DNA of 64,000 nt from Chiloscyllium plagiosum (GCF_004010195.1 NC_057719.1:27649458-27713457), one strand, 5' to 3'; numbered from the stretch's first letter, positions 9,156 to 64,000 are shown. Notes: a model not told the origin generated them from the sequence alone. Numbers and translations: made by a program.

Positions 9156-9242
9156 ATAGTTTGTAAATTTCTACAATAAGTGATAGTAAAAGAGATTGTT
9201 TAAACATATTTAGGTAATAGTCTGAGAATGCAAAGAAGAACA

Positions 9243-9445
9243 GGAGTGTGTTGCTGGGAAAGCACAGCAGGTCAGGTAGCATCCGAGGAGCAGGGGAAAT
9301 CGGTGTTTCGGGCATTAACCCTTAATCAGGAAGGGCTTATGCCTGAAACGTCAATTCTCCTGCTCCTCAGATGCTGCCTGACCTGCTGTGCTTTCCCAGC
9401 AACACACTCTCAACTCTGATCTCCAGCATCATCACTTTCTCCTGG
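9243..9445. mobile_element. Palindromic Penelope-terminus mini-element (family A)
   Basis: Inverted arms spanning 9245-9409 plus a tail; flanking direct repeat aaagaagaaca at 9232-9242 and 9446-9456. Confidence 0.8.
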
Positions 9446-9479
9446 AAAGAAGAACAAGCCCATCAGTAATAATTGCTGT

Positions 9480-9810
9480 AGAGTGAACAGAAGTAGACAG
9501 GCAAGAGGCTGGAAGAACACAGCAATCCTGGCAGAATCTAGAGATGGAGAAGTTGAAGTTTCAGGTGTAACCCTTCTTCAGGACTGGGGGTGGGGGTAGG
9601 AGGAGCTGCAGATAAACGAGGAGGCGGAGCAGGGTTGTGAAATGGGGATAGGTGAAGACAGGTAGAGGGTACGACCCCATTGGTCAAAGGAAGGAATGAA
9701 TCTGGTTGGTGGCAGGGAGCAGAGGAAAGGATGGGGAGGGACTGGGAAGGGAGTCAGGGGATGGGGAGGGATGTTATTTGAATTTGGAGAACTCAATATT
9801 GAGTCCTTCA
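9480..9810 (-). mobile_element. Penelope-like 3' terminal fragment
   Basis: Minus-strand CTGAAGA-agggt-taca-cct-GAAA core; purine-rich spacer like the other PLE copies. Confidence 0.65.
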
Positions 9811-10579
9811 AACAGAAAGTAGTTAGTTTATTGATCTAGCAATGGCAGATTTGATTATTATCTCTATAAAAGCAATAGAAGGCTATATTTCAATTTTTCT
9901 AGAAAGGTCTCGTAAATAAGAGTATTACAAATTGCCAGGCAACCAAGAAAGCAGACTGTTCCCTAGACAACAGGAAAAACTTAGCAAGCACTTCAATAAT
10001 CACTAATGCATACATTAAATAACCTTTTCCAACCAACCTAACCTGTTTCACATGGTTGCTATAGGTTTCAGTCTAACCTCCCACCATAGACATACTTTAC
10101 CCAAAATTTAAAGTGCATTAAACCAGCTTCAGAAGTGTTTTCTTTTGTGACAGGATATGGTTCTCTTGTACAGTGAAATGGAACAGTGGGACCACTGTTC
10201 GAACTCTAACCATGTGGTATGATAAAGATCATCTCTCTTCACTAAATGTAACTTTCCAACTGAAGTCAGTTTTTACAGGCTCGGCCCAGTTCAGAATGTG
10301 TGGGTCCAAATGAAAGATTATCCAAGACTAAAGACAAATTGCTGCAAGATAAAGGTTAAAGCAGAGCACTGCGCAACTAAAGCTCCCTCTACTGTCACCC
10401 CCAGGAATGTGCTGTTGCTGAGACATTGTAAGTCTGCTCCCTATTTAATCTATTATAAAATCCCATCACATTCCTCACCAGCTAATTCTGTGCTTTCCCA
10501 ACAGCACCTACCCATTAGTGCCACATTTACTCAATGTAAAGCAAAAACCTTGACTTACTGGTATCACGTTTACATTTTA

Positions 10580-11020
10580 ACTTAGTTCAGGCCCAGAGCA
10601 TGTGGCCTATACTGACACTTTGGAACAATACTGACTGTACTGCTAGGGGTAATCATCTTTCAGATAAATTTTTAACGCAATGCCTTATCTGCCCCTTCAG
10701 GTGGATGTAAAAGATGCTATGAAGAACAGTTAGGAAATATCTCCCAGTTTCCTGGCCAGCACACCCATAATCAGATCAGCTAATGATCTTAAATGAGATG
10801 GGAAACAGGCTTGATGGACCAAATGGTCTACTTCTGCTCCTATGTTTTCATTTATCCATTAACCAAAACCTCACAAAACCAGATCAATTGCTTATTCTTC
10901 TCATTGTCAGTTAGCAATTTGGGTAAAAACACCAATTGACTGTAGCATTAATTCAAAATGATTTCACCAGTAATAAACTCCTTTTGATGGGCCAGTACAA
11001 ATGTTACTGCATGAATAAAA
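10580..11020 (+). mobile_element. Degenerate Deu-domain SINE with an inserted CR1 tail (about 10770-10850)
   Basis: tctgccccttcaggtggatgtaaaagat resembles the Deu core. Confidence 0.6.
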
Positions 11021-11289
11021 ATTCTTAGTTTGAACTCACAAAGGCAGAAATGACTCTTTTATCTGCATTTATGTCTACCTAAAGATATTGCCTCTAAAAA
11101 TCTCCTCACAGGAGAAAAAAAGACTTTCACTCCAAAGGTCTGTCCTGTGTATGAACCAAGTTCAAAGGCAGGTACAAAAACTTCCTCACAAACCAATTGT
11201 CCAGACTCGTGTTTCCTTTAATGAAACATTGGAAAAACTCAAGCCAATGCCTTCAGTCCCCGTGATCCCTAGTCACTGGCTGCTTCTCT

Positions 11290-12371: not shown

Positions 12372-12687
12372 TTAGATTAGATTAGATTACTTACAATGTG
12401 GAAACAGGCCCTTCGGCCCAACAAGTCCACACCGACCCGCCGAAGAGCAACCCACCCAGATACATTCCCATACATTTACCCCTTCACCTAACACTACAGG
12501 CAATTTAGCTTGGCCAATTCACCTAACCTGCACAGTTTTGGACTGTGGGAGGAAACCGGAGCACCTGGAGGAAACCCACGCAGACACGGGGAGAATGTGC
12601 AAACTCCACACAGACAGTTGCCCGAGGCGGGAATTGAACCCGGGTCTCTGGCGCTGTGAGGCAACAGTGCTAACCACTGTGCCACCC
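12372..12687 (-). mobile_element. HE1-type SINE, near full length
   Basis: Pol III A and B boxes, V-core and (ATCTA)n tail on -. Confidence 0.95.
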
Positions 12688-15339: not shown

Positions 15340-16965
15340 GAAACAAAGAACAGAGCATGCGAGAGAAACACAGTGGGCCTGGCAGAATCTCAAGATAGAA
15401 AAACAGAGTTAACACTCAGAGTCTGGAGACCCTTCGTCAGAAAGGAAAATAGCCAGGAAAGGGTAGTTGTATGTTGAGCTCTATCCAAGTTATAGGGAGC
15501 AAGGGAGAGGGTGAGAGCCAAAGTGCAAGAGATGGGTCAGGCATAGCTGAGAAGCCTGTTAACCACAATGGTGGGGAATTCTTGGTTGATGAAGAAGGTG
15601 GACATTTCAGAGGCCCCCTTGTCAAATTTGGTATCATCAGATCAGATGCGAAGGAGACAGAGAAACTGGGAGAATGGAACAGAGTCTTTACAGAAAGCAG
15701 GGTGTGAAGATGTATAGGAGAAAGTGAGGACTGCAGATGCTGGAGATCAGAGGTGTTTTGGCGGAAATGACAACGGATGATACGATACATATGGAGGTTG
15801 GTGGGGTGGTAGGTCCTCACCTACCCCAGGACAGAACCCCACTGGTCCTCACCTACCCCAGGACAGAACCCCACTGGTCCTCACCTACCACCCCACCAAC
15901 CTCCATATACATCGTATCATCCGTCGTCATTTCCACCACCTCCAAACAGACCCCACCACCAGGGATATATTTCTCTCCCCTACCCTATCAGCATTCCGAA
16001 AAGACCACTCCCTCCGTGACTCCCTCGTCAGGTCCACACCCCCCACCAACCAAACTTCCACTCCCGGCACCTTCCCCTGCAACCGCAAGAAATGCAAAAC
16101 GTGCGCCCACACCTTCCCCCTCACTTCCCTCCAAGGCCCCAAGGGATCCTTCCATATCCGTCACAAATTCACCTGCACCTCCACACACATCATTTACTGC
16201 ATCNNNNNNNNNNNNNNNNNNNNNNNNNNNNNNNNNNNNNNNNNNNNNNNNNNNNNNNNNNNNNNNNNNNNNNNNNNNNNNNNNNNNNNNNNNNNNNNNN
16301 NTGCAGGTCCTTGGACTCCTCCATCGCCAGACCATAGCAACACGACGGCTGGAGGAAGATCGCCTCATCTTCTGCCTAGGAACCCTCCAACCACAAGGGA
16401 TGAACTCCGATTTCTCCAGTTTCCTCATTTCCCATCCCCCCACTTTGTCTCAGTGCCAACCCTCGAACTCAGCACCACCTTCCTAACCTGCAATCTTCTT
16501 CCTGACCTCTCCGCCCCCACCCCCACTCCGGCCTATCACCCTCACCTTAACCTCCTTCCACCTATCACATTTCCAACGTCCCTCTCCCAACTCCATCCTC
16601 CCTACCTTTTATCTTAGCCCGCTTGGCACACTTTGCTCATTCCTGAAGAAGGGCTCATGCCCGAAAGGTCGATTCTCCTGCTCCTTGGATGCTGCCTGAC
16701 CTGCTGCGCTTTTCCAGCAACACATTTTCAGCTGTGAGGAAGTATAGACACGATAACTGTGGGAGCCAATGGGTTTGTCATGGATATCAGTGGCCAAGCT
16801 AACCCCAGAATTAGAAACAGATGTCTAGGAAGGAAAGGGAAGAGTCTGAGATGTTCCAGGTGAAGATGAGAGCGGGGCAGAAATTGGAAACAAAATTGAT
16901 AAACTTTTTGAATTTTGGATGAGAGGGGGAAGCAGCACTAATGATGTCATCAATGTACCAGACAA
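15340..16965 (-). mobile_element. Older Penelope-like element (15340-15715 and 16748-16965) hosting a younger PLE
   Basis: Minus frame WYIDDI...FINFVSNFCPALIFTWNISDSSLSFLD is PLE-type RT; a terminal arm with a decayed hammerhead lies near 15400-15440. Confidence 0.75.
15718..16732 (+). mobile_element. Penelope-like element 3' portion (Cys linker plus GIY-YIG) with an inverted 5' piece; gap 16204-16301
   Basis: PLVLTYHP...PGTFPCNRKKCKTC...FTCTSTHIIYCI; hammerhead-like core at 16643-16670; imperfect direct repeat at 15703-15717 and 16733-16747. Confidence 0.88.
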
Positions 16966-17275
16966 TGTCATAGAGTTGTATAGCAATAGAAACAAATGCT
17001 TTGGTCCATCTTGTCCATGTCAACCAGATATCTTAAATTAATCTAGTCCTATTTGCGAGATTTTGGCCCATATCCCTCTAGACCATTCCTATTTATCTAG
17101 CCATCCAGATAGTTTTGAATGTTGTATAAGCATCCAACCCTTCTTCTGGCAGCTCATTCCATACACTCACCAACGTGCTTAAAGATGTTGCCCCTTAGGT
17201 CCCTTTTACATCTTTCCCGGCTCACCTTAAACCTATGCCATCTAGCTTTGAACTTCCCTACCCTGGGGAAAAGTG
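16965..17275 (-). mobile_element. CR1 3' end
   Basis: ..HRFKVSRERCKRDLRGNIF.. followed by the CR1 tail. Confidence 0.8.
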
Positions 17276-18011
17276 TTGTGGAGAGAGACCCAAGTAAGAC
17301 TGGAAGAAGGAGTGCTTCACATACTATACAAAGAGGCATAACTGAGCCCAGAAATCTGCTCTCTTGCACAGAAGCTCAAATGAACATTTTTCCTTACCCA
17401 TTGGCTCAAAAGTGTGTCTTGTCACCACTACAGGATGAGTCTCAAACTCGTTCAGTGAATAAGCTGCCAGATTGGGTTTGTTCACATGCTCAGCTGCACA
17501 CTTCATTATAACCTTGGTTCAGGTTTGGATCAAAGAACTAAATTCCAGAACTGAAATGAAATGACTGCTCACTGACCTCAAGGCATCCCAAGAACAAGGC
17601 GAAAAAGTAGTTGATACATATACATGCTATAAACAGTTCACATCCATCCCATTCCAAATAGCGTAGGACCAGCTGGAGTATTCCAATAACTGGATAACAT
17701 CAGCCAGTTCACGAATCTTGTAAAGTTAGCAAATTAATTCAGAAAAGTCATTCGTTTGGTAATCTGGGATGTTTTGAAGTTAATCTGTTGCTTTCCTCTG
17801 TGGGTGACAAATGTTGCTAGCGACTCAGACCAGGATCCTTCTACTATATGTTTCGCTGCACTGAACACTAAAATAAATACCACCTCATCCCAGCATGAAT
17901 GTTGAGAGAGTATCTTTGCTTGTTTGATTGGATCTCACAAGGTTTGAGATCCAAGTAATTAAACTTGCTCTGGACAGAGCATTATTCAACTCATTCTAAA
18001 ACAAGGATCAT

Positions 18012-18130
18012 ATCAGACTCAAAATATTGACTCGTTCTCTTTCATTGATGCCTCTAGACCTGCTGAGTTTCTCCAGCGCTTTCTGTGTTTAGTTCAGATC
18101 CAAAATACTTGCAGCGTTTTGCTTTTATTT
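18012..18130 (+). mobile_element. Penelope terminal arm (family C), degenerate
   Basis: agacctgctgagtttctccagc...ttttgcttttatttt resembles 27400-27514. Confidence 0.55.
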
Positions 18131-20079: not shown

Positions 20080-20578
20080 CGACGAGTGTGCGGCTGGAAA
20101 AGCACAGCTAGTCAGGCAGTATTCAAGGAGCAGGAGAATTGACATTTCAAGCATAACCTCTTTATCAGGAATGAGGGGGTGGCCCAAGGGGGCTGAGAGA
20201 TAAATGGGAGGAGGGTAGGGCTGGGGGGAAGGTAGCTGGGAATGCGAGAGGTAGATGAAGTTGGGGGTCAGAGAGGAAGGTGGAGAGGATAGGTGGGAAG
20301 GAAGATGGACAGGTAGGACAGGTCAAGACGATGGTGCTAAGTTGGAAGGTTGGCTGGTGGGGGGTGGTGAGGAAATGAGGAAACTGGTAAAATCTACATC
20401 GATCCCATGTGGTTGGAGGTCCCAAGGCAGAAGATGAGGTGTTCTTCCTCCTGGGGTGTGAAGGGTTTGGCGGTGGAGGTTTGGCTTCATGTCTTTGGCA
20501 GAGGGGGAAGGGGAGTTAGAGTGTTCAACCATGGGGCGGTGGGGTTGGTTGGTGCGGGTGTCCCAGAGATGTTCACTG
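20080..20578 (-). mobile_element. Penelope-like 3' fragment
   Basis: Resembles the reverse complement of 44811-45393 (EHLWDT...LQPHGIDVDF). Confidence 0.85.
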
Positions 20579-21599
20579 AAAAGAGGGATTTATATTTTCT
20601 GATTCAGTAAAATAAGTTCACCTTTGATTTAACAAAAACACCTGTAAAATTGAGGTCAGATTGATTTAGAAAATTATCCATATATCCATCAAAATCCATA
20701 ACAATTCTTGATATATATCAAGTACGATTCAGACAGTCACTTACTAACACATGTAGTTTACACTAAATCTTATTTGTCAAATGAGAATTTACAAAATAAG
20801 CTCAAAAAATAAAACCAGCACTCAGGAATTGCAACACAGAAATTTGTTGAAGTGTGATTTATGTTACATGGTCTCTCTCATACATAGCTCTCACTGTTTC
20901 TTGACCAGGCAGCATTGCAATTAAGTTTGATCCCATAGGGATTGTATGTCTGCTCCAGCACAGCCTAACTCAAAGTCCAGGAGAAAAGAATTTACCTCAA
21001 ATGAGCAAGAAGTTAAAACCTTAACCAGAAAGGTATCACTAAAAAACCTTTCCAATGGAACATTTCTTTTTAATCATTCATGAGATGCAGGCACTGTCAC
21101 CAGTTCTTACTCATCGCTAATTGCCTTTTGATTCGGTAGTAATGAGCTGCCTTCTTGAACTGCGGCAGACTGTGTGTTTAGTCAAACCAAAATACCATTA
21201 GTCAGTGAGTGCCAAGGTTTTGACTCTGTTCCTTCAGTGTCACTGGATCAAAACCACGGAACACCTTCCTAGTACTATTTTATGTCTACCCACAGCACAC
21301 AGAATGTTGCAGTTCAAGAAAGCAGCTCAACGTCAATATCAAGGTTTCATTTTATTAAAAAAATATCAGTTCAACAGTTTCTTAGGATTATTTATCCAGT
21401 TATGCAGAATGATACCAAGCGAAAGGGCAGTCTATCCATCTTCTCAGTGTAGGCAGTGCAAATGAGACACAAAAACAGTCACTCCAACACATTCTGATCC
21501 CTGGCTGGTTACATGTGTCACTACCAACCCTGGGGAAGATGATAGTTATCTGCCTACTCCAATACAATTGAATGGTTGTCAGAGGACCTCAGACAAAAA

Positions 21600-22350: not shown

Positions 22351-22369
22351 CTGATAGATCGGAGAATGA

Positions 22370-22558
22370 TTTGGAAATGCTACTGTTGGACTGGGGTGTA
22401 CATACTTAAAAATCACACAACACCATGTTATAGTCCAACAGGTTTAATTGGAAGCACTAGCTTTCAGAGTGCTGCTTCTTCAACCACCTGATGAAGGAAC
22501 AGAGCTCCGAAAGCTCGTACTTCCAATTAAACTTGTTGGATTATAACCTGGTGTTGTC
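22370..22558. mobile_element. Palindromic Penelope-terminus mini-element (family B) with hammerhead core
   Basis: Inverted arms; + core cac-CTGATGA-aggaac-aga-gctcc-GAAA-gctc; imperfect direct repeat at 22356-22369 and 22559-22572. Confidence 0.8.
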
Positions 22559-23439
22559 AGATATGAGAATGAAGGATATTACGTCAACAATTGTGGGAAC
22601 ACAAATGTAACAGCTAGTAGTGATACACAAGCTTGCCAACCCTCAAAGAGAAGGCTTGTTTTTTTTTTAAACAAAGCAAGTTTATGTTGCTTTGCTTGTC
22701 ATATATCACACAGGTATTCACATTTTCTTTGCACCAATAAACCCCCGTTCAGTTTGACATCAGAGAATCAGAATAGATTTCTGTTGTCTTACATGGAGGT
22801 CATGCTTGTAGCACAAAGACCTTTGTGTGCATTGTCACAGAGAATGGAGAGGGGCCACATGCTAACTGACACAGACCACAACCACAAAGCTTATCTTCCC
22901 ACTTCCCAGATGGCTTCTTCCCTCCACATGAGACATGTGCATGAGAATATCAGAGCCCTTCACAATGCCACATCTTAAGCAGCTAAGGTGATCATCATCC
23001 CGCAAGACATTTAAAAAGAGGGTGCAAAATTGTTGGAAGTATAACCAGATTACACAAGACCATGGGAATCGGGGTGCAACTCAAAAGGTTAGCACCGATG
23101 CACCCAAAGTGACCTCAATATTCTTTAATCTTTCTCTTCCTACTATTTTAAGTAGCTGCATCTCAGCTAAGCAGGTGGAAGCCTATCTGCTTTGCCACCT
23201 CGTCACAGATAACATTGACAGGCATCCTCAATCTTCAGCATCCTCGCTCCTTGGTATCTGCATGTGGAGGCACATTGGTCCCTGGTGGTGGTGACGTGAA
23301 ACTGCAGGGCACCTCTCAGCACACAATTCTGGGTGCCTATCTATCGGCTGTTTGTTACCCCAGTTGGTGCACCATATCACCTCCCTTACCCCTTGAGGGT
23401 TTGGGGTAAAGGTCCCTCGGCCCTCATTGTGGTGATGAA

Positions 23440-25899: not shown

Positions 25900-27040
25900 G
25901 AATGGGAGTTCTCCAGGAATAGATACCACTTCTTGGAGGTGAATTTTATTAGTTTTAGTTGAACTGTTTGTTGGACCAGACTGTTCTGGTGGACTGTTTG
26001 GCCTTAGAGAGGACAAGACTTTTCATCCAATATAATTTTTCCAACTAATATCCATGATAATCAAGCTGAAAGATTGAATTCATTTCAACAACCACTGCCA
26101 AAATGGTCAGGTCAGAAGAAAGAGTGTTGAAAGTTCCCATGGCTGTGTTCCAAACGTCTACCCTCCCCTTCCCATTCACCCAACTTTCAAACATCATCTT
26201 TCATTTGTCCACTAGCAGAAGTACTTCCATTATCATAACTAGGTTCAATCAGATTAAAGTTATCAATTTACCAGCTTGAGCCACTTAATGCATTTGTTCC
26301 ATTTCTCAAAACTGGAATGGGTTAGGAATGGGAGAAAGTGAGGACTGCAGATCAGAGTCAAAAAGTGTGGCACTGGAAAGGCACAGCCGGACAGGCAGCA
26401 TTTGAGAAGCAGGAGAGTTGACGTTTCAAGCATAAGCTTAGCTCATGCTCGTAACATCGGCTCTCCTACTTCTCGGATGCTGCCTGCCTGGCTGTGTTTT
26501 TCCAGCGCCACACTTTTTGACATAGATTAGGAATGGTTTGTGGAGTGTTGGAACATATGACTAGAGATGCAGTTTTGATTTGTTATAATCCTAAGAATAA
26601 ATTGGTTTTAGCATGCAATGCCTGACTATAGAGGTTAGATCTAGGTATGGAAGATGGTGGGGAAAGTTCTGTAGCATTTGTTTCACATTAACAAAGTCAG
26701 ATTGAAATTGCTCAAAGTTGAGAAATAGGCGTTCCTGATCAAATATGGGGTTAAGTTCCACACTTTCTTGTATGGTAGGAAGTCCATTTTGACTGTCCAC
26801 TATGTCGTTATCATAAGAAAAGTATGGAAATTACCATCTAGCTGATCACAAAACAAATACATCTGCAACACCATTTGATGTTGGGTAAAACAGTGGTATC
26901 AATTGGCATTTAACTCCATTTTTACTCCAATATTTCAAATTCCTCTGATTTAAACTGTTGACTCTAGCATCTGTGGGAATCCATAAATCATATTTGGTTT
27001 AAAGAGGACAATACCATTCCCAGTGAGTATAAATTTTCAC
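25900..27040 (-). mobile_element. Decayed Gypsy/Ty3 integrase region
   Basis: Minus strand gives IYGFPQML..QFKSEEFE and KNGVKCQLIPLFYPTSNGVADVFV, compare the integrase core YGLP..LVSDNG.QF.SEEF..NGI.H..PYHP.SNG.AERFV. Confidence 0.6.
26332..26526. mobile_element. Palindromic Penelope-terminus mini-element (family A)
   Basis: Arms gtcaaaaagtgtggc...gccacactttttgac; direct repeat ttaggaatgg at 26322-26331 and 26527-26536. Confidence 0.8.
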
Positions 27041-27286: not shown

Positions 27287-27514
27287 AACAACAACGACAG
27301 AAATTGCTGGAAAAGCTCAGCAGGTCGGGCAGCATCTGTGGAGAGAAATCAAAGTTAATGTTTCGGGTCCAGTGAGTCTTCTTCAGACTACCACTGGAAC
27401 CAGAAAATTAATTCTGCTTTCTATCCGCAGATGCTGCCATAACTGCTGAGCTTTTCCAGCAATTTCTGTTTTTGTTTCTGATTTCCAGCATCCACACTTC
27501 CTTCAGTTTTTATT
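27287..27514. mobile_element. Palindromic Penelope-terminus mini-element (family C)
   Basis: Arms acagaaattgctggaaaagctcagcag...ctgctgagcttttccagcaatttctgt; 15-bp direct repeat tgcaatgtattcagc at 27272-27286 and 27515-27529. Confidence 0.8.
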
Positions 27515-28617: not shown

Positions 28618-28846
28618 GGTCTAGATCAGAGTGGTGCTGGAAAAGCACAGGAGGTCAGGCAGCATCCAAGGACCAGGAAAATCGATGTTTTGGGAAAAAG
28701 CCCTTCAACAGGAATGCCCTGAAGGGCTTTTGCCCGAAACGTCAATTTTCCTGGTCCTCGGATGCTGCCTGACCTGCTGTGCTTTTCCAGCACCACTCTG
28801 ATCTAGACTCTGATCTCCAGCATCTGCAGTCCTCACTTTCACCGCC
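28618..28846. mobile_element. Palindromic Penelope-terminus mini-element (family A)
   Basis: Arms gtctagatcagagtggtgctgg...ccagcaccactctgatctagac; 13-bp direct repeat gatccaaaatggg at 28605-28617 and 28847-28859. Confidence 0.88.
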
Positions 28847-37727: not shown

Positions 37728-37792
37728 AAAACCAAAACAATTGCGGATGCTGAGGAAGGGTCTCCGGATCCAAAACGTTGAGTTTGATTTTT
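37728..37792 (+). mobile_element. 65-bp Penelope-derived insertion made of an inverted terminal stub plus a hammerhead-like core
   Basis: CTGAGGA-agggtc-tccg-gatcc-AAAA-cgtt; 13-bp direct repeat ctgaaaagttttt at 37715-37727 and 37793-37805. Confidence 0.7.
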
Positions 37793-44810: not shown

Positions 44811-45393
44811 GAGCCCTTCAGGGAACATCTCTGGGACACCCGCACCAATCAACTCTGCTGCCCCGTGGCCCAACATTTCAACTCCCCCTCCCACTCTGCC
44901 AAGGATACGCGGGTCCTGGGCCTCCTCCACCACCGCTCCCTTACCACCAAATGCCTGGAGGAAGAAAGCCTCATCTTCGGCCTCGGAACACTTCAACCAC
45001 AGGGTATCAATGTGGACTTCACCAGTTTCCACATTTCCCCTCCTCCCACCTTACCTCAGTTCCAACCTTCCAGCTCAGCACTGTCCTCATGACCTGTCCT
45101 ACCTGCCAATCTTCCTTCCCACCTATCCACTCCACCCTTCTCTCTGACCTATCACCTCCATCCCCACCCCCATTCACCTATTGTACTCTTTGCTACCTTC
45201 TCCCCAGCTGCCTCCACCCCTCCTTCCTATTTATCTCTCCAACCTGTAGGCTTCCTGCCTCTATTCCTGAAGGGCTTTTGCCCGAAATATTGATTTTCCT
45301 GTTCCTCGGATGCTGCCTGACCTGCTGTGCGTTTCCAGCACCACTCTGATCTAAACTCTGGTTTCCAACATCTGCAGTCCTCACTTTTGCCTG
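44811..45393 (+). mobile_element. Penelope-like 3' fragment with terminal arm
   Basis: FREHLWDT..PVAQHFN..EESLIFGLGTLQPQGIN; direct repeat atgaatgaa at 44802-44810 and 45394-45402. Confidence 0.88.
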
Positions 45394-46885: not shown

Positions 46886-47195
46886 ATGGTGGCTCAGTGG
46901 TTAGCACAGCTGCCTCACAGGATCCCAGGTTCGATTCCAGCCTCGGGTGACTGTCTGTGTGGAGTTTGCACATTCTCCTAGTGTCTGCATGGGTTTCCTC
47001 TGGGTGCTCTGGTTTCCTCCCACAGTCCAAAAGGTGTGCAGGTCAGGTGAATAGGCCATGCTAAATTGCCCATTAGGTGTTAGGTGCATTAGTCAGAGGG
47101 AAATGGGTCTGGGTGGGTTACTGTTTGGAGGGTCGGTGTGGACTGGTTGGGCTGAAGGGCTTATTTCCACACTGTAGGGAATCTACTCTAATCTA
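46886..47195 (+). mobile_element. HE1-type SINE nested in CR1
   Basis: A and B boxes, V-core, ATCTA tail. Confidence 0.92.
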
Positions 47196-47707
47196 AGACA
47201 GCAACGGGTAAAACTAAAAGGCAACAGGATTAGGAGTGGATGGATAAAAGATTGGTTAGTAGACAGGAAACAGAATAGGAATAAATGGATCTTTTCCTGA
47301 TTGGCATTAGTTACTATTGGGATACTGCAGAGATTAGTACTAGAACCCCAGCTATTCACAATATATATTAATGATTTTGATGAGGAAACTAAATACAACA
47401 TCTCAAAATTTGCAGGTGATAGAATGCTGGATGGGAGGGTGAGCTGTGAGGAGAATGCAGAGATACTTCAGTGTGACTTGAGCAGACTGAGCGAGTGGGT
47501 AAATGCATGGCAAAGGCAGTACAATGTCAATAAGTTAAAGTGTATCCACTTTGGTCACAGAAGTTAGGAAAGGAGATCATTATTTAAATGGCTGTAAATT
47601 AACTGAGGGGAATGCTGAATGAGACCTGGATGCCTTTGTGCACCAGTCGTTGAATGTAAGTGTGTAGGTGCAGCAGGCAGTAAAAGAAGGCAAACTGTAT
47701 TATAGTG

Positions 47708-47928
47708 TTAAAAATCACACAACACCAGGTTATAGTCCAACAGGTTTAACTGGAAGCACTAGCTTTCGGAGCGACGCTCCTTCATCAGGTGATTGTGGAC
47801 AATCACCTGATGGAGGAGCGTCGCTCCGAAAGCGAGTGTGCTTCCAATTAAACTTGTTGGACTATAACCTGACGTTGTATGATTTTTAACTTTGTACACT
47901 CCAGTCCAACACCGACATCTCCGAATCG
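47708..47928. mobile_element. Palindromic Penelope-terminus mini-element (family B) nested in CR1
   Basis: Arms of about 90 bp centred on attgtggacaat; 12-bp direct repeat tgtattatagtg at 47696-47707 and 47929-47940. Confidence 0.88.
47757..47791 (-). ncRNA. Minimal type I hammerhead ribozyme motif with intact core
   Basis: cac-CUGAUGA-a-ggagc-guc-gcucc-GAAA-gc-UA-gug: short helix I cac/gug, 5-bp helix II, palindromic AGCU in place of helix III; activity not shown. Confidence 0.7.
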
Positions 47929-53869: not shown

Positions 53870-54860
53870 CCCACAGATCAGAGAAACCTCAAAAATATTC
53901 CTGGCCAATCTGAGATCCAATTATAACTAACTTTATTGCCTTTGGATTCCTTGGGCAGTGTTTGGAGAAATACAAGACCTTGGTCCATTCCACTGTCACT
54001 CCTAACACTAACTCATTTCACCATGGCACCTTCTAGTCCCTTTACAGATCTAAAACTCATCCAATCGTCTCCTCCATCCTCACTGTCCAAAGCCTCAAAA
54101 ACGTCCAGGTGAAGCAGCAGTTTACTTGTATTTCTTTCATTCCAGTTTACTGTATTTGCTGTCTCACAATGTGGTCTTCTTTACATTAGGGAGACCAAAA
54201 GTAGACTGGGTGAGTATTTTGTGGAACACTTCCACTCTGTCTCTAGGAACGTCTGTAACCTTCCATATGTTTCACCTTGCGCTAGTGCTAACAATATTGT
54301 CCTGGGTCTGCTGCAATGTTCCACTGAAGCACAATGCAAGCTCAAGGAACAATAACTCATTTTCTGCTTAGACACTCTGCAGTCTTGAGGACGTAATACT
54401 GGGTTCCATAACTTCAAAAACTGATCACATTATAACTGTTCTCCATTTCTCTTGTATTCATCCACCTCCCCCTACAACCCCTCTAGCCCTTTGACTTTTG
54501 CACTGGGCCTCTCTACCACCTTCGGTAAAAACAATGACTGTAGATGTTGGAAACCAGATTCTGGATTAGTGGTGCTGGAAAAGCACAGCAGTTTAGGCAG
54601 CATCTGAAAAGCAGTAAAATTGATGTTTCAGGCAAAAGCCCTTCATCAGGAATATAGCATACAGCTCTCTACCACCTTGCTCTCCTTCACCTGTCAAAAA
54701 TATTTCATAAAGTTATCTTTAGTCTTTTTCAGTTCTGAAGAGTCGTTGTGCACTGAAAACGCTGACTCTGTTTCTCTCTTAATGGATGCTGACAGACACG
54801 TCGTGTTTCTTCAGCTTTCCATGTGTTTCTCACACTATTTATAGTCACAGCACCTCTGCA
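53870..54860 (+). mobile_element. Old Penelope-like 3' region (GIY-YIG) with a nested family-A arm at 54523-54664
   Basis: LYLLSQCGLLYIRETK-like GIY-YIG motif across frameshifts; the nested arm is flanked by ctctctaccacctt at 54509-54522 and 54665-54678. Confidence 0.78.
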
Positions 54861-55507
54861 GGTTGTTTTCATTTTTAAAATGAGATGCCATATAACACAC
54901 AACACTAAACATAGTATCAGAAATGTCCAACAGAAATGATGTGGATTTTCAGAGCTGTATGAAAGCCAGCTACCGCAAGATTTGAAAAGAAAAAATTCAG
55001 CAGAAGAATTTCAACTGGGCTGAGTCAGGATGGCTGTTAATTTTCCAGTCCCTGAGCTGTGGAAATTAAAGGTAGTATGAGGTAGACCTGGAATATCTTG
55101 AAGTCTCAGTAGCAAAATTCTGAAGTTGCTCAAACATTAATCATGTAATGTGAACAATTAACAGTAGCAATTCTTGTCAATGCCGGGGGGGGGGGGGGGT
55201 GGAAATGGAGCTGTATTGCCCCCAGGACCAAAATGAGGTGCTGAAAAGCCAGGCTGCAGACATTTTGAAAGTTTCAAGACACATTTTGCAACTTCTAATA
55301 AATATCTGGAGAGAAGGCCAAAAGAAAGGTGGTGAAGGTCAGGGTAAAGGATATAGAATATTGCAGAAGACACCACGTGAAACAAAAGGAAGTATGTTCC
55401 AACATGGGCTTTGCAATGTTTTAGTTGTACAAAATGCAGTTTTGTTGCAAGTGTTTAGCTAGGGAGAAGCAAAGCAAGCTTATAAAAGTAAGCAGTGTAA
55501 ATGTAGG

Positions 55508-55835
55508 AGGCACGGTGGCACAGTGGTTAGCACTGCTGCCTCACAGCGCCTGAGACCCGGGTTCAATTCCCGACTCAGGCGACTGACTGTGTGGAGTTTG
55601 CATGTTCTCCCCGTGTCTGCGTGGGTTTCCTCCGGGTGCTCCGGTTTCCTCCCACAGTCCAAAGATGTGCAGGTCAGGTGAATTGGCCATGTTAAATTGC
55701 CCGTAGTGTTAGGTAAGGGGTAAATGTTGGGGTATGGGTGGGTTGCGCTTCGGCGGGGCGGTGTGGACTTGTTGGGCCGAAGGGCCTGTTTCCACGCTGT
55801 AATGTAATCTAAAAATCTAATCTAAATCTAATCTA
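55508..55835 (+). mobile_element. Young-looking HE1-type SINE
   Basis: CpG-rich; A-box tggcacagtgg, B-box ggttcaattcc, (ATCTA)n tail. Confidence 0.95.
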
Positions 55836-56184
55836 GGAGAAAGTGAGGACTGGATGCTGGAGAGTCAGAGTCACAAAGTGTGGTGCTAGAAGGGCACAGC
55901 AGGTAAAGAAGCATCCGAGAAGCAGGAAATGTTAGAAGATAGTTCTGATGAATCACCCTCCATCCAACAACAGGCTAGCATCATCAGGTCTGAAAGGTGA
56001 TAAAAGATTTCCGGCTGTTAGAATGACAACTGCAATTGGACAGCATCAAGTGGATGTAAAACGTGTCGGACAAATACTGGTACTCAATGCAAGATTGTGA
56101 GCTTTGTAGACCAGTGCAAAAAGTGTCTTAAGAATATGATCCAAAAATGAACACTTCCAAAAATAAAGTTGAGCCTACATAATA

Positions 56185-56745
56185 CATAGAAACACAGAAT
56201 ATCAGAGCAGGAGTTGACCATTCAGCCCTTCAAGCCTGTTCCACCATTCAGTATATCATGGATGACCATCCAACTCAGTACCCTGCTCCTGCTTTCTCCC
56301 CATATTCTTTGATTCCTTTATTCTGAAGAACTACATCCAGATATTTCTTGAAACTCTTCAATACTTTGCCCTCTACAGTTTCCTGGGGCAAAGAATTCCA
56401 CAAGCTCACACCTCTCTGGGTGAGGACATTCCTTCTCATCTCAGACCTAAAAGGCCTAGCCCTTCTCCTGAGCTCTGGTTCTCAAACTCTCCAGTCATCC
56501 AGAGCATCCTCCCTGCATCTACCCTTTCCAATCCTGTTTGAATTTTATAGGTTTCTATGAGACCCTGCTTCATTCTTCCTAACTCCAGTGAATAAAGTCT
56601 TAACTGATCCAGTCTCTCCCTGTTCATCCCAGAAATCATTCTGATAAACTCTTTGCACTCCCTCAATAGCCAGATAAGGAGACCAAAACTACACAAAATA
56701 CTCCAGGCATGGTGTTACTCTGTACAGTTGCAGCAAGACATCAGC
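56185..56745 (-). mobile_element. CR1 3' end
   Basis: GLIETYKIQTGLERVDAG motif and tail. Confidence 0.82.
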
Positions 56746-57385
56746 ATTCTCTTAAGATGTAAATGCAGGTTTAGTTAGCAGTTAGGAAGGTAAATGCAAT
56801 GTTAGACTTCATTTCGAGACCTAGAATACAAAAGCAGAGGTGTACTACTGAGGTTCTGGTCAAACTGCATTTGGAATACTGTAAGCAGTTTTACACCCCA
56901 AATCTAAGGAAGGATGTGCTGGCAATGGAGGGGGTCCAGAGAAAGTTTACAAGAATGGTCCTGGAAATGAAAGGCTTGTCATACAATGAGTGGTTAAAGT
57001 CTCTGGGTCTGTACTCGATGGAGTTTAGAAGGCTGAGGGGGAATCTCATTGAAACCTACAGGATACTGAGAGGCTTGAATAGAGTGGATGTGGAGATGTT
57101 TCCATGAGTGAGGATCCAAGGGCACAGCCTCAATGAAGGGACAGTCCTTTAGAACAGAGATTAGGAGGAATTTCTTCAGCCAGAGGGTGGTGACTATGTG
57201 GACTTCATTGCCACAGTGGGCTGCAAAGGCAAGTCATTGAAAGTATTTAAGACAGAAATAGTAAGGGTTGATTGGTAATGAGATCAAGGTTTTATGGGAG
57301 AAGACAGGAGAAACATATCAGCCATGATTGAACGGAAGAGCAGACTCAGTGGGCTGAATGGCCTGATTCTGCTCCTATATCTTCT
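56746..57385 (+). mobile_element. CR1 3' end
   Basis: EGVQRKFTRM and RGNLIETYRIL motifs and tail. Confidence 0.85.
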
Positions 57386-57429
57386 GGGTACAAGTGAAGC
57401 ACAGAGCCCAATGAAATGGGAAGAACCGA

Positions 57430-60400
57430 GATAGAGTCATAGAGATGTACAGCATGAAAACAGACCCTTCGGTCCAACATGTCCATGAAGACCAGATATC
57501 CCAACCCAATCTGGTCCCACCTGCCAGCACCGGCCCATATCCCTAAAACCTTTCCTATTCACACACCCATCCAAATGCCTCTTAAATGTTGCAATTGCAC
57601 TAGCCTCCACCACATCCTCTGGCAGCTCATTCCATACACGTACCACTCTGAAACAATTGCCCCTTAGGTCTCCTTTATATCTTTCCCCTCTCACCCTAAA
57701 CATATGCCCTCTAGTTCTGGACTCCCCGATCCCAGGGAAAAGACTTTGTCTATTTATCCTATCCATGCTCCTCATGATTTTGTAAACCTCTATAAGGTCA
57801 CCCCTCAGCCTCCGACACTCCAGGGAAAACAGCCCCAGCCTGTTCAGTCTCTCCCTATAGCTCAAATATTCCAACCCTGGCAACATTCTTGTAAATTTTT
57901 TCTGAACCCTTTCAAGTTTCACAACATCTTTCCGATAGGACGGAGACTAGAAATGCAGGCAATATTCCAACAGTGGCCTAACCAATGTCCTGTACAGCCA
58001 CAACATGACCTCCCAACTCCTGTAGTCAATACTCCGAACAATAAAAAAAAGCATACCAAATGCCTTCTTCACTATCCTATCTACCTGCGACTCCACTTTC
58101 AAGGAGCTGTGAACCTGCACTCCAAGTTCTCTTTGTTCAGCAACACTCTCTCGGACCTGACCATTAAGTGTATAAGTCCTGCTAAGATTTGCTTTCCCAA
58201 AATACAGCACCTCGCATTTATTTGAATTAAACTCCATCTGCCACTTCTCAGCCCATTGGCTCATCTTGTCAAGATCCTGTTGTAATCTGAGGTAACCCTC
58301 TTTGCTGTCCACTACACCTCCAATTTTGGTGTCATCTGCAAACTTACTAACTGTACACCTTATGCTCACATCCAAATCATTTATGTAAATGACAAAAAGT
58401 AGAGGACCCAGCACCGATCCTTGTGGCACTCCACTGGTCACACGCCTCCAGTCTGAAAAACAACCTCCCACCACCACCCTCTGTCTTCTAACTTTGAACT
58501 AGTTCTATATCCAAATGTCTAGTTCTCCCTGTATCCTGTGAGATCTAACCTTGCTAAGCGGTCTCCCATGGGGAACCTTGTCGAACGCCTTACTGAAGTC
58601 CATATAGATCAAATCTACTCCTCTGCCCTCATCAAACCTCTTTGTTACATCTTCAAAAAAACTCAATCAAGTTTGTGAGACATTATTTCCCACACACAAA
58701 GTCATTTTGACTACCCCTAATCGGTCCTTGCCTTTCCAAATACATGAACATCCTGTCCCTCAGGACTCCCTCCAAAAACTTGGCCACCACTGACATCAGG
58801 CTCACTGGTCTATAGTTCCCTGGCCTGTCCTTACCATCCTTCTTAAACAGTGGCACCACGTTAGCCAACCTCCAGTCTTCCGGCACCTCACCTGTGATTA
58901 TCGATGATACAAATATCTCAGCAAGAGACCCAGCAATCACTTCTCTAGCTTCCCACAGAGTTCTAGGGTACACCTGATCAGTTCCTGGGGTTTTATCCAC
59001 TTTTATCCGTTTCAAGATATCCAGCACTTCCTTCTCTGCAATATGGGCATTTTGCAAGGTGTCACCATCTATTTCCCTACATTCTATACCCTCCATACCA
59101 TTTTCCACAGTAAATACTGATGCAAAATACTCATTTAGTATTTCCCCCATTTTCTGCAGCTCCACACAAAGGCTGCCTTGCTGACCTTTGAGGGGCCCTA
59201 TTCTCTCCCTGGTTACCCTTTTGTCCTTAATATATTTTCCTTAATTCTATTTGCCAAAGCTTTCTCACATCCCCTTTTTGCCCTCCTGGTTTCCCTCTTA
59301 AGTATACTCCTACTGCCTTTATATCTAAGGAGTCATGCGATCTCTCCTGTTTGTACCTTACATATGCTTCCTTCTTTTTCTTAACCAAACCCTCAATTTC
59401 TTTAGTCATCCAGCATTCCCTATAGTTACCAGCTTTCCCTTTCACCCTGACAGGAATATACTTTCTCTGGATTCTCGTTATCTCATTTCTGAAGGCTTNN
59501 NNNNNNNNNNNNNNNNNNNNNNNNNNNNNNNNNNNNNNNNNNNNNNNNNNNNNNNNNNNNNNNNNNNNNNNNNNNNNNNNNNNNNNNNNNNNNNNNNNNN
59601 NNNNNNNNNNNNNNNNNNNNNNNNNNNNNNNNNNNNNNNNNNNNNNNNNNNNNNNNNNNNNNNNNNNNNNNNNNNNNNNNNNNNNNNNNNNNNNNNNNNN
59701 NNNNNNNNNNNNNNNNNNNNNNNNNNNNNNNNNNNNNNNNNNNNNNNNNNNNNNNNNNNNNNNNNNNNNNNNNNNNNNNNNNNNNNNNNNNNNNNNNNNN
59801 NNNNNNNNNNNNNNNNNNNNNNNNNNNNNNNNNNNNNNNNNNNNNNNNNNNNNNNNNNNNNNNNNNNNACCTACCAGCCTTTCCTTTCACCCTGACAGGA
59901 ATATACTTTCTCTGGATGCTTCTTATCTCATTTCTGAAGTCTTCCCATTTTCCAGCTGTCCCTTTACCTGCGAACATCTGCCTCCAATCAGCTTTTGAGA
60001 GTTCTTGCCTAATACCGTCAAAATTGGCCTTTCTCCAATTTAGAACTTCAACTTTTAGATCTGGTCTATCCTTTTCCATCACTATTTTAAAACGAATAGA
60101 ATTATGGTCGCTGGTCCCAAAGTGCTCCCCCATTGACACCTCAGTCACCTGCCCTGCATTGTTTCCCAAGAGTTTAGCACCTTCTCTAGTAGATACATCC
60201 ACAAACTGAATCAGAAAATTGTCTTGTACAAACTTAACAAATTCCTCTCCATCTAAATCCTTAACACTCTGGCAGTACCAGTCTATGTTTGGAAAGTTAA
60301 ATCCTCTACCATAATCACCCTATGATTCTTACAGATAGCTGAGATCTCCTTACAAGTTTGTTTCTTAATTTCCCTGACTATTAGGGGGTATAATATAATC

Positions 60401-60945
60401 CTAATAAGGTGATCATCCCTTTCTTATTTCTCAGTTCCACCCAAATAATTTCCCTGGATGTACTTCCAGGAATATCCTCCCCAAGTACAGCTGTAATGCT
60501 ATCCCTTATCAAAAATGCCACACACCCTCCTCTCTTGCCTCCCTTTCTATCCTTCCTGTAGCATTTGTAACCTGGAACATTAAGTTGCCAGTCCTGCCCA
60601 TCCCTGAGCCATGTTTCTGTAATTGCTATGATATCCAGTCCCATATTCCTAACCATGCCCAGAGTTTATCTGCTTTCCCTGTTCAGCCCCTTGCATTGAA
60701 ATAAATGCAGTTTAATTTATTAGTCCTACCTCGTCCCTGCCTGTTTGACTTGCTTCTGTTCTCAACTGTACCAGTCTCAGATTGATCTCTTTCCTCAGTA
60801 TTTCCCTGGGTCCCACCCCACCAGCTTACTAGTTTAAATCCTCCCAAGCTGCTCTAGCAAATCTCCCTGCCAGTGTATTAGTCCCCTTCCAATTTAGGTG
60901 CAATCAGTCCTTCTTGTACAGGTCACTTCTACCCCAAAAGAGATC
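57430..60945 (-). mobile_element. Long CR1 LINE: nearly complete decayed ORF2 (APE plus RT) with upstream sequence; gap 59499-59868
   Basis: [38 protein letters not shown] and WNELP motifs, then the tail. Confidence 0.95.
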
Positions 60946-61922
60946 TGCAGTTTCAGATTCCTCATCAAAATCCACACAACTGAAGTAAATCTAAAACCTG
61001 AGTGAGTAAAGCTCAACATGCCAGAAGAGATCTACAGCATTTTGCAGGTTATTAAGCATTGACAACAGATCTTAATTGATTGCAAAGACTTGGTGGAGAA
61101 ACTGAGAATCCAACTAATGCAGAAGGTCCTGAAAAATGGAATGAAAGGCAATCAAGAAATTATTCTTGGAGGAGCTGGCAACTCAAAACAAGTGAAAGTA
61201 GAAGAGATAGTCATCAGAACAGCAGAGAAAGATTGTAAAAAGGATAAAAGAATGGAACAAGAAAATAATAGGATTTGAAGATGGCTGAAGTCGAAGACAC
61301 ATGCTCACAATCAAAGTATCATAATGGTCACAATATAATACCTAATATAGGCAGAAATACACAGTCTTTCACACAAAAGACTGACACACTAAAGCTCTTA
61401 AATCAAATGAATTGTTTTATAATGCACAATGCAGACTTACATCAACAGTGCCTACAATTTAGTGAAGTATTTCATTGGCTCCTTAGGGCAGCTTTGCAGT
61501 TCTGAAAGATGCTGTGGAGCAGCATTTCTTTTGAGTCCTAGCTATCTTTTACGAGGTTAAAATCTACGTGCTATTTCTAACAACACAAGGTATAAAGCTC
61601 AACCTATTTTGAAATCATACTGATGAAAATTGCACACCTCGCTGATACTTTTAGAACAGCACTTTTCCCAATGTCAATATAAACAGAGCAGACGAAACGG
61701 TATCTCTCTGGAGAGAAACAATGTTAACCTTTTACAGTTGCAAACCACTTATCAGACATAACTCCATCAGTTCTGAACAAAGGCTACAGACTGAAAACTC
61801 TGTTTACCTTCTCCACACAAAACGCTGCTTCAAATGGAGCTTTGTTTTACTATCTGAAATCAAGTAACAGAGGTCAGTGTACTGACAGTGAGAGGACTTG
61901 GCCTGGATCCTGAAAGATACCG

Positions 61923-62004
61923 GAAGAAGGGCTTATGCCCGAAACGTCGATTCTCCTTGGATGCTGCCTGATCTGCTGCACTTTTCCAGCAACACATTTT
62001 TCAG
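61923..62004 (+). mobile_element. Single-arm Penelope terminus (family A)
   Basis: gaaga-agggc-ttat-gccc-GAAA-cgtc; 15-bp direct repeat tcctgaaagataccg at 61908-61922 and 62005-62019. Confidence 0.82.
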
Positions 62005-62094
62005 TCCTGAAAGATACCGACAGGTATGAAACCAGTGCAACAAGAATTGCCTAAAGAAGTTCTTGCCTAATTTGTCAGCATGTAAACATGTACA

Positions 62095-62305
62095 TAGAAC
62101 TTAGAACAGTACAGCACAGAACAGGCCCTTCAGCCCACGATGTTGTGCCGACCATTGATCCTCATGTAAGGTAAACCTAATATACGAACCCTCAAATTTC
62201 TGTGACCATATGCATGTCCAGCAGTCTCTTAAATATCCCCAATGACCTCGCTTCCACAACTGCTGCTGGCAACGCATTTCATGCTCTCACAACTCTCTGT
62301 GTAAA
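62095..62305 (-). mobile_element. CR1 3' tail
   Basis: tagaacagtacagcacagaacaggcccttcagccc. Confidence 0.8.
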
Positions 62306-62512
62306 GCTCATGGCCAATGGTGTGTAAGGGCAAAGAACAAGCAGCAGTTTTCACTTGAATCAAATGCCAGGAACCCGGCAGGGTTAGCCACTCTGCACCT
62401 TGAAAGTCGGCGGTGAAAGCTGATATTGCCCGCCATAGCTATGGAATACTCCATGGTATCTCAAGCTGGCTGGCGAACAGGACTTCGACACCCTCCTGCC
62501 TTACAAAGCAAT

Positions 62513-62637
62513 AAAAACAAGGACTGCAGATGGCTGGAAACCAGAGTCTAGATTAGAGTGGTGCTGGAAAAGCACAGCAGGTCAGGCAGCATCCGAGGAG
62601 CAGGAAAAAAAAACATCGACATTTCGGGCAAAAGCCC
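62513..62637 (-). mobile_element. Single-arm Penelope terminus (family A)
   Basis: Direct repeat tacaaagcaat at 62502-62512 and 62638-62648. Confidence 0.82.
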
Positions 62638-64000
62638 TACAAAGCAATCAGACTGTCCAGCAGCCCTATCAGCCCAGGTTAGAGCAGTAGCCAACACTGC
62701 AATCCCCAGAGAGGTTGAGCTAACAGAGGCCAGACTTCAGGTAAGTCTGGCGTATTGATGGGACCAGGCTAATAGACACCAGGGAGGGAGCAGAATGTTT
62801 ATTCTGGGGTGGGGAAGCAGTGAGGCAGACAGAAAGAGTAACATGGGGGGAAAAGGTGGGGCTCTTCCAGGAGCATGGTGACACCCAGAAAGAGGATCTT
62901 CCCAACACCACCATCCCCCAAACTTGCCCAATAAAAACTGCCAGGCATACACAGCTACCATGTTTCCCCCCCACCCCTTACCATGGGTAAAATAGGGGCC
63001 AGGGCAGGAGCAGGCACTTTTGTGGTCATTAACTGGATAATAAAAGGCATTCCTCTGTAAAACGGGAGGAGAGATCAGGATGGGCAGGCAGGTAGTGTAC
63101 AGGCCACAGCTTTTTATAATCGAGCACAGTTCCCCCAACTAATCCCATCTTCAAATCCACTTCAGGGAAAGTAAAGTTCTACCAGTGGGAAAATTTCCCA
63201 CGTCAAATGGTCTGTTGCTTTATGCTCACTTTTTTAAAGCAGTTGGCCTCATTATATCTTTTTCCTATGATAAAAAATGATTAAACATTCACAATATTAT
63301 TAAGACATCCTGCAGAATGAAGCCTAGTTTATTCCAAAGTTGTGAGCTAGCTAGATAGTCACAATTGATGACAAACCAGTTAAAAGTATCACAATAATGT
63401 TCTGAACCTTTGGATAGACATTTAAAAAAGCCACTTTCTACCTAAATATATTTTGAATATATTCTGCATCCTGTAATGAGAAAGGTGTCAAAAGAAAATT
63501 AATATCAAGTAAATTTAAAATGTTTAGTTTGAAGAATACAAATTCCATACCTTCTGAAATAAATTGTGGGAAAACAATCTGTGGAGAGCTGAAGCTCATC
63601 TTGATAACTCTGCCTTTCTGTAGATGGTCCTATTCAGAAGGGATTTCAGGACAGCAACCATTCATTTCACAGATGCAAACAAAAGCCAAACTTCAAATCA
63701 GAGTTACACTGGAGGAGCAATGCTGCAGGTAAACAACGTTAAATTCACGGGAAGAAAAGCAGTAAATCCTTTCCACAGACCTCCAATGGTCACAATATTG
63801 TATTGTTTAATCTCGGCAGAAAATCAGTCTTTCACACAAAAAAACTGACACACTAAAGCTCTTAAATCAAATGAATTGTTTTATAATGCACAATGCAGAC
63901 TTACATCAATAGTGCCTACAATTTAGTGAAGTATTTCATTGGCTCCTTAGGGCAGCTTTGCAGTTCTGAAAGATGCTGTGGAGCAGCATTTCTTTTGAGT

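Follow-up and report, generated by a model that had tools for sequence, protein, structure and literature searches.

Penelope-like inserts and target-site duplications

The window analyzed here is the whole stretch of 64,000 nucleotides from the genome of the shark Chiloscyllium plagiosum (GCF_004010195.1, NC_057719.1:27649458-27713457), with positions counted from its first base. About 6.5 kb of it is derived from Penelope-like elements (PLEs), and our analysis confirmed that the stubs named in an earlier survey of the sequence (the original prediction) are separately inserted PLE 3' ends. That survey had listed twelve inserts, named here by their first base: ten short ones (65-229 bp) and two longer copies, 15718 and 44811 (the latter of 583 bp). 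All twelve are real, but the palindromic form of six short ones and eight further PLE copies were missed (Table 1).

Exact direct repeats of 8-15 bp flank 11 of the 12 named inserts, the boundaries being set by homology and target-site duplications (TSDs) being searched for from 25 nt outside to 12 nt inside each boundary. Among 2884 random flank pairs, repeats of at least 8, 9 and 11 bp occurred with P = 0.024, 0.009 and 0.002, respectively; the separate exact TSDs thus exceed the null and bear out the claim of independent integrations. The expected repeat length of 9-15 bp held with two exceptions, the shorter repeat of 22370 and the imperfect one of 15718, which is 6 bp long if exact and 15 bp long with two mismatches (15703-15717 versus 16733-16747). 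Insert 15718 sits within the reverse transcriptase (RT) remnant of an older PLE, and the duplicated block encodes a YTSSH-type motif. Since four full-length or long RT homologues hold this motif once at that place, the repeat was made by the insertion; in protein P0001, a second, unrelated match to the loose YTSSH-type pattern lies near the N-terminus. The TSDs contain 64% AT, compared with 57% for the window. A search in silico for empty sites of the twelve named inserts gave no crossing matches among window paralogues.

The eight further copies have no clear TSD, their repeats being of the chance-level length of 4-5 bp. One of them (3970-5547) interrupts a SINE-like repeat (SINE, short interspersed element) without duplication, as seen from four paralogues that cross the site. 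It is a blunt insertion, and the first 6 nt of the target are the same as those with which the tail of the element begins, a hint that primer and template paired at the start site.

Coding parts and classification

Judged by their sequence, all inserts are 3' ends of PLEs with a GIY-YIG endonuclease, each comprising the pseudo-long terminal repeat (pLTR) with or without a tail of about 37 nt. The stubs share their terminus, as had been predicted, with GIY-YIG-bearing copies, and the same 3' ends occur on long copies carrying parts of the open reading frame (ORF) (15718, 44811 and 20080). At least three sequence families had been expected, and families A (with subfamilies A1, A2 and A3), B and C were distinguished.

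No full-length ORF was found within the window. The GIY-YIG fragment at 5022-5360 (minus strand) is 73% identical to a Chiloscyllium punctatum protein (3 matches among 127 candidates), and the window fragment matches 2693 cluster representatives at E<=0.001. The fragments align to the C-terminal part of proteins of 486-897 amino acids. In the four longest homologues tested and in the Chiloscyllium protein, RVT_1 is followed by GIY-YIG, all below Pfam cut-offs, so the canonical order of endonuclease-containing (EN+) PLEs, RT and then C-terminal GIY-YIG, is seen through homologues; RT remnants are present at 15480-16972. The pLTR with a hammerhead, the optional tail, the inverted truncated arm and the variable TSD of canonical EN+ PLEs were also found.

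The CCHH motif is defined by two Cys between GIY and YIG, and a CX2-5CxxC linker together with CCHH is assigned to the Neptune and Nematis clades (PMC8557442); Neptune and Poseidon are reported across the vertebrates sampled in a recent preprint (10.64898/2026.07.22.740005). In the window, CxxC stands between the IIY and YIG motifs (5022-5360, minus strand), two later His are found by alignment in the 44811 copy, and a CX4CxxC linker is present in the 15718 copy and in the plus arm at 5340-5549. The elements probably belong to the Neptune clade.

Hammerhead motifs

A strict descriptor of the minimal hammerhead (CUGANGA, an unpaired base, stem II, GAAA, a palindromic pair and UH) found six minimal type I motifs in the window, with 0.02 expected from 200 shuffles. 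Only three of them fall in the ten short inserts (22488, plus strand; 47788 and 54649, minus strand), and a stem II free of mismatches plus the 15.2-16.2 pair are found only at 47788 and 4058. Intact minimal hammerheads thus lie at 47788-47760 (minus strand, insert 47708) and 4058-4031 (copy 3970-5547), and a near-intact one at 22488-22516 in the plus arm of 22370; another motif occupies 16643-16670 in the 15718 copy, and the hammerhead of 44811 lacks three core bases at 45267. The claim that the short inserts mostly bear hammerheads stands insofar as cores, intact or decayed, are present, but three of the ten (26332, 61923 and 62513) never received the CUGA box. In 9243, 27287, 28618 and 37728 the box is present and the core or stem II is mutated. 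The family-specific stems keep their pairing; helix I is weak (2-3 bp by eye).

Minimum-energy folding did not recover the hammerhead as the predicted lowest-energy structure. Rfam gave no matches at gathering thresholds and, for two loci, no hammerhead family at E<=10; the generic hairpin families (mostly microRNA, miRNA) that appeared at E<=10 were rejected as far below cut-offs. In a metagenome scan, all 17 loci matched over 21-32 nt only, and these were dismissed as chance matches. By sequence criteria, the hammerheads are of the minimal type I, with self-cleavage only predicted.

Arms, tails and centres

Six of the ten short inserts (9243, 22370, 26332, 27287, 28618 and 47708) are head-to-head palindromes. 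With 37728 and 15718 they make up eight TSD-flanked two-armed inserts, each of which has exactly one tail; the odds of this would be 1/256 if the arms chose their start sites freely and equally. Among the window copies, two classes of 3' end were observed, which coincide with the end of the pLTR and the end of the tail, respectively. In upstream reach, the tailed arm is shorter than its partner in six of the eight inserts, tied in two and longer in none (sign test, P = 0.03).

Relative to the first catalytic base of the hammerhead, C3, the tail-less and tailed arms start, respectively, at -3 (inverted) and +5 (direct) in 9243, at -7 (plus) and +4 (minus) in 22370, at -5 and +4/+5 in 28618, and at +10 and +9/+10 (minus), within stem II, in 26332. 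In 27287 the tail-less minus arm, which has the core boxes and a decayed stem II, starts at 0 or slightly upstream, and the tailed plus arm at about +7; both arms of 47708 start at about -8 to -11, the tail being on the plus arm. Insert 37728 combines an inverted arm consisting of the tail only with a tail-less arm that starts at C3 (0) and ends early (+44). The single arms start at -4 (54523), about +2 (61923) and +7 (62513).

In 15718, an inverted tail (15718-15752) is joined to a short inverted ORF piece, and the long arm runs through the linker and GIY-YIG, the 3' untranslated region (UTR) and the hammerhead to a tail-less pLTR end; the tail-only arm begins within 1 nt of its partner's end. 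At the 5' end of this long arm (15814-15890), a 32-nt ORF segment stands in tandem repeat, which is consistent with RT slippage before joining. The pLTR end of family A1 (16715-16731) resembles a 3' splice acceptor, with a pyrimidine tract and CAG at the tail boundary; this may be chance. Copy 44811 consists of the end of the GIY-YIG ORF, 3' UTR, hammerhead, pLTR and tail. The layout of 3970-5547 is a tail-less pLTR with an intact hammerhead, 891 N, the GIY-YIG ORF and a 365-bp fold-back, whose arm terminates inside the ORF, leaving two arms and no tail.

The centres of the three family-A palindromes are all different, as are those of the two family-B ones. They show microhomology of 2-5 nt or hairpins pre-existing in the element: short ones at 9243, 27287 and 15718, and a near-perfect one at 47708. 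The loop, where it can be oriented (9243, 22370, 27287, 28618 and 15718), belongs to the tail-less arm. Sister arms are 82-92% identical in the three family-A palindromes. Six of 11 alleles found in exactly two copies unite sister arms, four of them from the subfamily of 26332, whose arms are united by four private alleles and which has one other member (20080) in the alignment.

The stubs do not resemble miniature inverted-repeat transposable elements (MITEs), whose terminal inverted repeats extend to both ends and whose TSD has a fixed length: the stubs have an unpaired tail of 25-47 nt on one side and a TSD that varies from 8 to 15 bp. Nor are they non-LTR retrozymes, which have at least two tandem head-to-tail units with a whole hammerhead in each, as the stubs are head-to-head or single. 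A SINE-like family with a fixed unit and shared boundaries and centre was not found in the window, since the five centres of families A and B differ; the discrete SINE-like class offered as one option by the original prediction is not supported, given these centres and the same terminus on ORF-bearing copies.

Start positions at the hammerhead edge

Sixteen of the 17 arms of the ten short inserts start between -11 and +12 of C3, a zone of 24 nt, and none of the 17 starts at the cut site (+27/+28). Counted as one event per insertion, 11 of 20 start in the zone (P of about 1e-4 against the best memoryless-stop model). Neither random breakpoints nor a discrete family, the two options of the original prediction, therefore match the pattern: reverse transcription tends to stop in one zone at the hammerhead, and the products include two-armed fold-backs. 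Two long copies of different subfamilies, 44811 and the one starting at 20580, have starts in the endonuclease ORF that lie no more than about 6 nt apart (n = 2), a possible second stop site.

DNA contigs and RNA reads

Positions 44565-45490 were aligned at 80% likeness to three sets of DNA contigs (organisms A, B and C, with 98,460, 60,571 and 75,650 records aligned) and to one RNA run (3313 reads aligned, from a sample of about 2% of all its reads); the joints described are those among the 15 of 405 listed, and the loose ends those among the 24 of 2815 rows listed. Depth at 45278-45339, over the hammerhead/pLTR, exceeded that of the ORF/UTR body 7.0, 8.2 and 8.5 times in the DNA sets and about 21 times in RNA. 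Loose ends piled up at 45268 (upstream side, with a heterogeneous consensus), at the pLTR end (45344, in all three DNA runs) and at the tail end (45392, in two of three among the rows listed). The last two piles show the two 3' end classes beyond the window as well. Loose ends at 45292, the position of the cut site, were rejected as signs of cleavage: because they are also present in the DNA runs and carry upstream hammerhead sequence, they represent clipping at the mismatches of the copy. No pile of RNA ends was called in the 3313 reads, which come from a poly(A) single-cell library and are weak for this purpose.

Opposite-strand joints occur in all three DNA sets, and one of them (45268/45303) was seen repeatedly, in 9 contigs of one run, 5 of another and 6 of the third. 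Short tandem joints lead from the tail end (45387-45388) back to 45311-45315 (1-3 contigs per row). The internal deletion at 7515 resumes at the same spot of the pLTR, and the tandem joints and this deletion are candidate retrozyme-like mini-units without a hammerhead. In organism B, one contig covers the left flank and continues for 67 nt into the 44811 element (23 differences in 313 nt); this insertion is therefore old and shared. Orthologous empty sites were not found among the 15 joints.

Other PLE copies and repeats

Coordinates of all PLE copies are collected in Table 1. Inserts 15718 and 54523 are nested in older PLEs, and 9243 ends about 30 bp from another one; with two of the twelve named inserts so placed, there is possibly some target preference for PLE sequence. 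The window contains four runs of N, two of which (4129-5019 and 16204-16301) lie inside long PLE copies, as expected if such repeats break the assembly. Many RT fragments of long interspersed elements (LINEs) were found at 30128-36391, 38104-40114 and 56383-60419 (RVT_1 at 57950-58498), and a SINE-like repeat of about 310 bp at 12372-12686, 46885-47196, 50949-51270 and 55506-55825; these are tentatively labelled CR1 and HE1, respectively.

Table 1. PLE-derived copies in the window, with exact TSD lengths unless stated otherwise
Feature	Coordinates	Strand	TSD	Remarks
Family A1 palindrome	9243..9445		11 bp (9232-9242 / 9446-9456)	
Family A1 long copy	15718..16731	+	imperfect (see text)	nested in older PLE; 98 N inside
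Family B palindrome	22370..22564		8 bp	
Family A3 palindrome	26332..26526		10 bp	
Family C palindrome	27287..27514		15 bp	
Family A2 palindrome	28618..28846		13 bp	
Family C-like two-armed insert	37728..37792		13 bp	
Family A2 single long copy	44811..45393	+	9 bp	also in organism B
Family B palindrome	47708..47928		12 bp	
Family A2 single tailed arm	54523..54664	-	14 bp	nested in older PLE (~53990-54830)
Family A1 single tail-less arm	61923..62004	+	15 bp	
Family A2 single tailed arm	62513..62637	-	11 bp	
Family A1 complex copy within SINE-like repeat	3970..5547	-	none	
Family A3-like long tail-less copy	20080..20580	-	no clear TSD	
Family A2 copy, tail present	7420..7594	+	no clear TSD	internal deletion removing hammerhead
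Older PLE 3' end, family D	9475..9800	-		hammerhead 9581-9555
Older PLE, RT remnants and decayed terminus	15341..16972	-		split by 15718 insertion
Old short decayed family-C-like terminus	17989..18114	+	no clear TSD	start near -8
Older PLE, GIY-YIG remnants	53990..54830	+		decayed terminus near 54735; hosts 54523
Decayed tailed family-A terminus	55833..55940	-	no clear TSD	

Possible mechanism of stub formation

The stubs are probably dead-on-arrival products of target-primed reverse transcription (TPRT) by GIY-YIG PLEs, usually stopped at the hammerhead and often made from both cut strands, and the abortive-insertion option of the original prediction is supported. In this small sample, the arm asymmetry suggests twin priming at two known RT start sites on one RNA. 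We tentatively propose an asymmetric form of twin-primed TPRT, a reading somewhat less likely than not: a protein dimer would start two complementary DNAs (cDNAs) on the same RNA, each on its own cut strand, a leading one from the pLTR end and a trailing one from the tail end. The hammerhead would mark the 5' edge of the RNA or the stop for both.

The endonuclease would likely nick both strands 8-15 nt apart, to judge from the TSDs seen here and from the two-strand nicking by PAc, the Poseidon element of Anolis carolinensis, and each nick would serve as primer for RT, which would begin at one or the other of two internal sites separated by about 37 nt. The one-tail rule would follow if priming from one nick began at the end of the pLTR and priming from its counterpart at the end of the tail. 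Both primers would use one RNA, so that the upstream, tail-less cDNA would lead and the tail-primed one trail, giving the asymmetry and the tail-only arms: the trailing cDNA would stop at the start of the leader in 15718 and 37728, or else follow by strand displacement or meet a fold-back copy of the leader. The leader could be stopped at -11 to +12 by the 5' end of the RNA or by the stem-II/ribozyme fold, on a template that would have been uncleaved, since the cut site lies within the copies. The two new ends might then join via 2-5 nt of microhomology, with host repair filling the head-to-head palindrome, and single-arm inserts would be cases in which one nick alone primed. If true, asymmetric twin priming would account at once for the tail, the inverted arm and the one-tail rule, and the ribozyme region would have a function independent of cleavage.

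Part of this anatomy could also come from pure fold-back, in which a cDNA stopped at the hammerhead snaps back on a hairpin of 3-5 bp and copies itself, with no second primed cDNA; a variant, self-priming on an antisense template, has been proposed (PMC3846280). Centres that coincide with the element's own hairpins, the arm of 3970-5547 ending within the ORF and the private alleles shared by some sister arms speak for it. However, a copy of a tail-less cDNA cannot gain the tail present on the other arm, and the tail-only arms of 15718 and 37728 need a second priming event. Moreover, the position of the orientable loops in the tail-less arm excludes a lone snap-back while allowing a fold-back of the leader to be captured by the tail-primed second cDNA, which is part of the twin-priming explanation; pure fold-back is thus rather improbable. 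We also consider it unlikely that two independent RNAs, one per nick, were each copied to near the hammerhead and end-joined, the asymmetry being a small-sample accident. Family-A sister arms are no closer than unrelated subfamily copies, the centres of 26332 and 47708 resemble blunt joins of equally long ends, and the sign test gives no more than P = 0.03 and is post hoc, all of which would suit two RNAs; one tail in all eight inserts with no reversed case, and a tail-only arm of 15718 fitted to its partner's end, would not.

A discrete SINE- or retrozyme-like family, in which short RNAs with a start immediately ahead of the hammerhead were transcribed from stubs and mobilised again in trans by the PLE protein, would account for the tight clustering of starts, the 7-8.5-fold excess of terminus over body in the DNA contigs, the recurrent joint 45268/45303 and the tandem joints to 45311-45315, and non-autonomous elements derived from PLEs have been published (10.64898/2026.07.22.740005; PMC8557442). 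It is nevertheless very unlikely: the window palindromes of families A (three) and B (two) share no centre, there are no tandem units or cut-site starts, the same ends occur on long ORF copies, and the recurrence of the pattern in several unrelated sequence families points to a mechanism rather than one master copy. Least credible of all, and close to negligible, is an origin from self-cleavage products, in which RNA templates, either cleaved or circular, would have their end at the cut site. The hammerhead cores have family-specific stems II that preserve pairing, and the DNA is compatible with a re-ligated circle; yet no arm starts at the cut site, most arms retain sequence upstream of it, the reads gave no RNA-end pile (in a library poorly suited to this), and the hammerhead of PAc is dispensable for insertion in vitro (PMC11167929).

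Several points weigh against asymmetric twin priming or against the evidence for a stop zone. Copy 3970-5547, two-armed, without tail or TSD and with its second arm ending in the ORF, fits plain fold-back rather than two primers, which is uncertain in view of the 891-N gap. The most conservative per-insertion chance (0.33) gives a clustering P of 0.035; numbers are small, the start window and the arm asymmetry were noticed post hoc, and starts in families B and C are approximate, as the window offers no upstream reference for them. The two arms of an insert resemble each other no more than they do unrelated copies of the same subfamily (92% between the left and right arms of 28618, 95% between its right arm and 62513), and in 9243 as in 28618 the arms have just one private allele in common, so that a single shared template is not established. 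In the contigs, the reference copy lacking three core bases at 45267 clips alignments and sharpens the upstream pile; depth is not copy number, and several subfamilies pile up on the conserved terminus. Finally, PAc, which supplies the mechanism, belongs to the Poseidon clade, not to Neptune.

Rather than a new mobile family, the stubs probably represent unsuccessful insertions of elements of a known kind, and they are mostly ordinary PLE debris. It is easy to mistake such stubs for MITEs, SINEs or miRNA hairpins; their value is as a fossil record of mechanism. The origin of the inverted arms and tails of PLEs and the role of the hammerhead are described as open in the literature available. 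The one-tail rule and the asymmetry of the trailing arm offer a modest, testable clue to PLE integration, with predictions that can be counted on thousands of TSD-bounded stubs: one tail per palindrome, a tailed arm that is never longer, and starts before the cut site.

Comparison with known systems

In twin priming of the L1 element, two target ends prime on one RNA, which results in an inversion; the internal site at which the second primer anneals varies, and there is no overlap between the arms. The shark inserts, by contrast, have overlapping arms, and the distance of their second site from the first would be constant at about 37 nt.

Minimal hammerheads of metazoan PLEs were described mostly as single motifs "probably related to truncated PLEs", and also as dual motifs 100-700 bp apart on opposite strands, with several families per genome (Cervera and de la Pena, 2014, PMC4209133). 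The window motifs share with them the core boxes, the unpaired base before stem II and the palindromic 15.2-16.2 pair; most of those found here, however, are truncated or decayed, and sharks are not named in the available text of that paper. The stubs resemble retrozymes (Cervera and de la Pena, 2020; Li et al., 2026) in being non-coding, hammerhead-bearing and related to the pLTR. Non-LTR retrozymes, however, are head-to-tail tandems with a whole ribozyme in each unit (PMC7229834; 10.64898/2026.07.22.740005), unlike the head-to-head or single shark stubs.

Canonical units of EN+ PLEs are 5'-truncated copies with a pLTR, a head-to-head inverted truncated copy, a one-sided tail of 30-40 bp and palindromic centres; their junctions show microhomology, and the TSD, if there is one, measures about 8-10 bp (Arkhipova et al., 2013, PMC3846280; Craig et al., 2021, PMC8557442). 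The anatomy of an inverted arm plus a tail has therefore already been described (PMC8557442; PMC3846280; PMC11167929; also PMC8969392). Here, in contrast, most units have only the two terminal arms and no body, the starts are concentrated at the hammerhead, and in no case is the tailed arm the longer one; we found no description of hammerhead-edge stops or arm asymmetry in the available open-access texts, though subscription papers (e.g., Arkhipova, 2006) or supplements may contain one.

The closest experimental parallel is PAc, for which cutting and extension of both strands were demonstrated in vitro (Frangieh et al., 2024, PMC11167929), with two adjacent internal RT start sites bounding the tail, uncleaved RNA as the dominant template and a predicted protein dimer. 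PAc belongs to another clade (the elements of the window have a CX4CxxC linker), and palindrome formation and hammerhead stops do not appear in the part of its description available. The shark inserts share with it the two start sites or end classes, the use of both strands, the uncleaved template and the AT-leaning targets.

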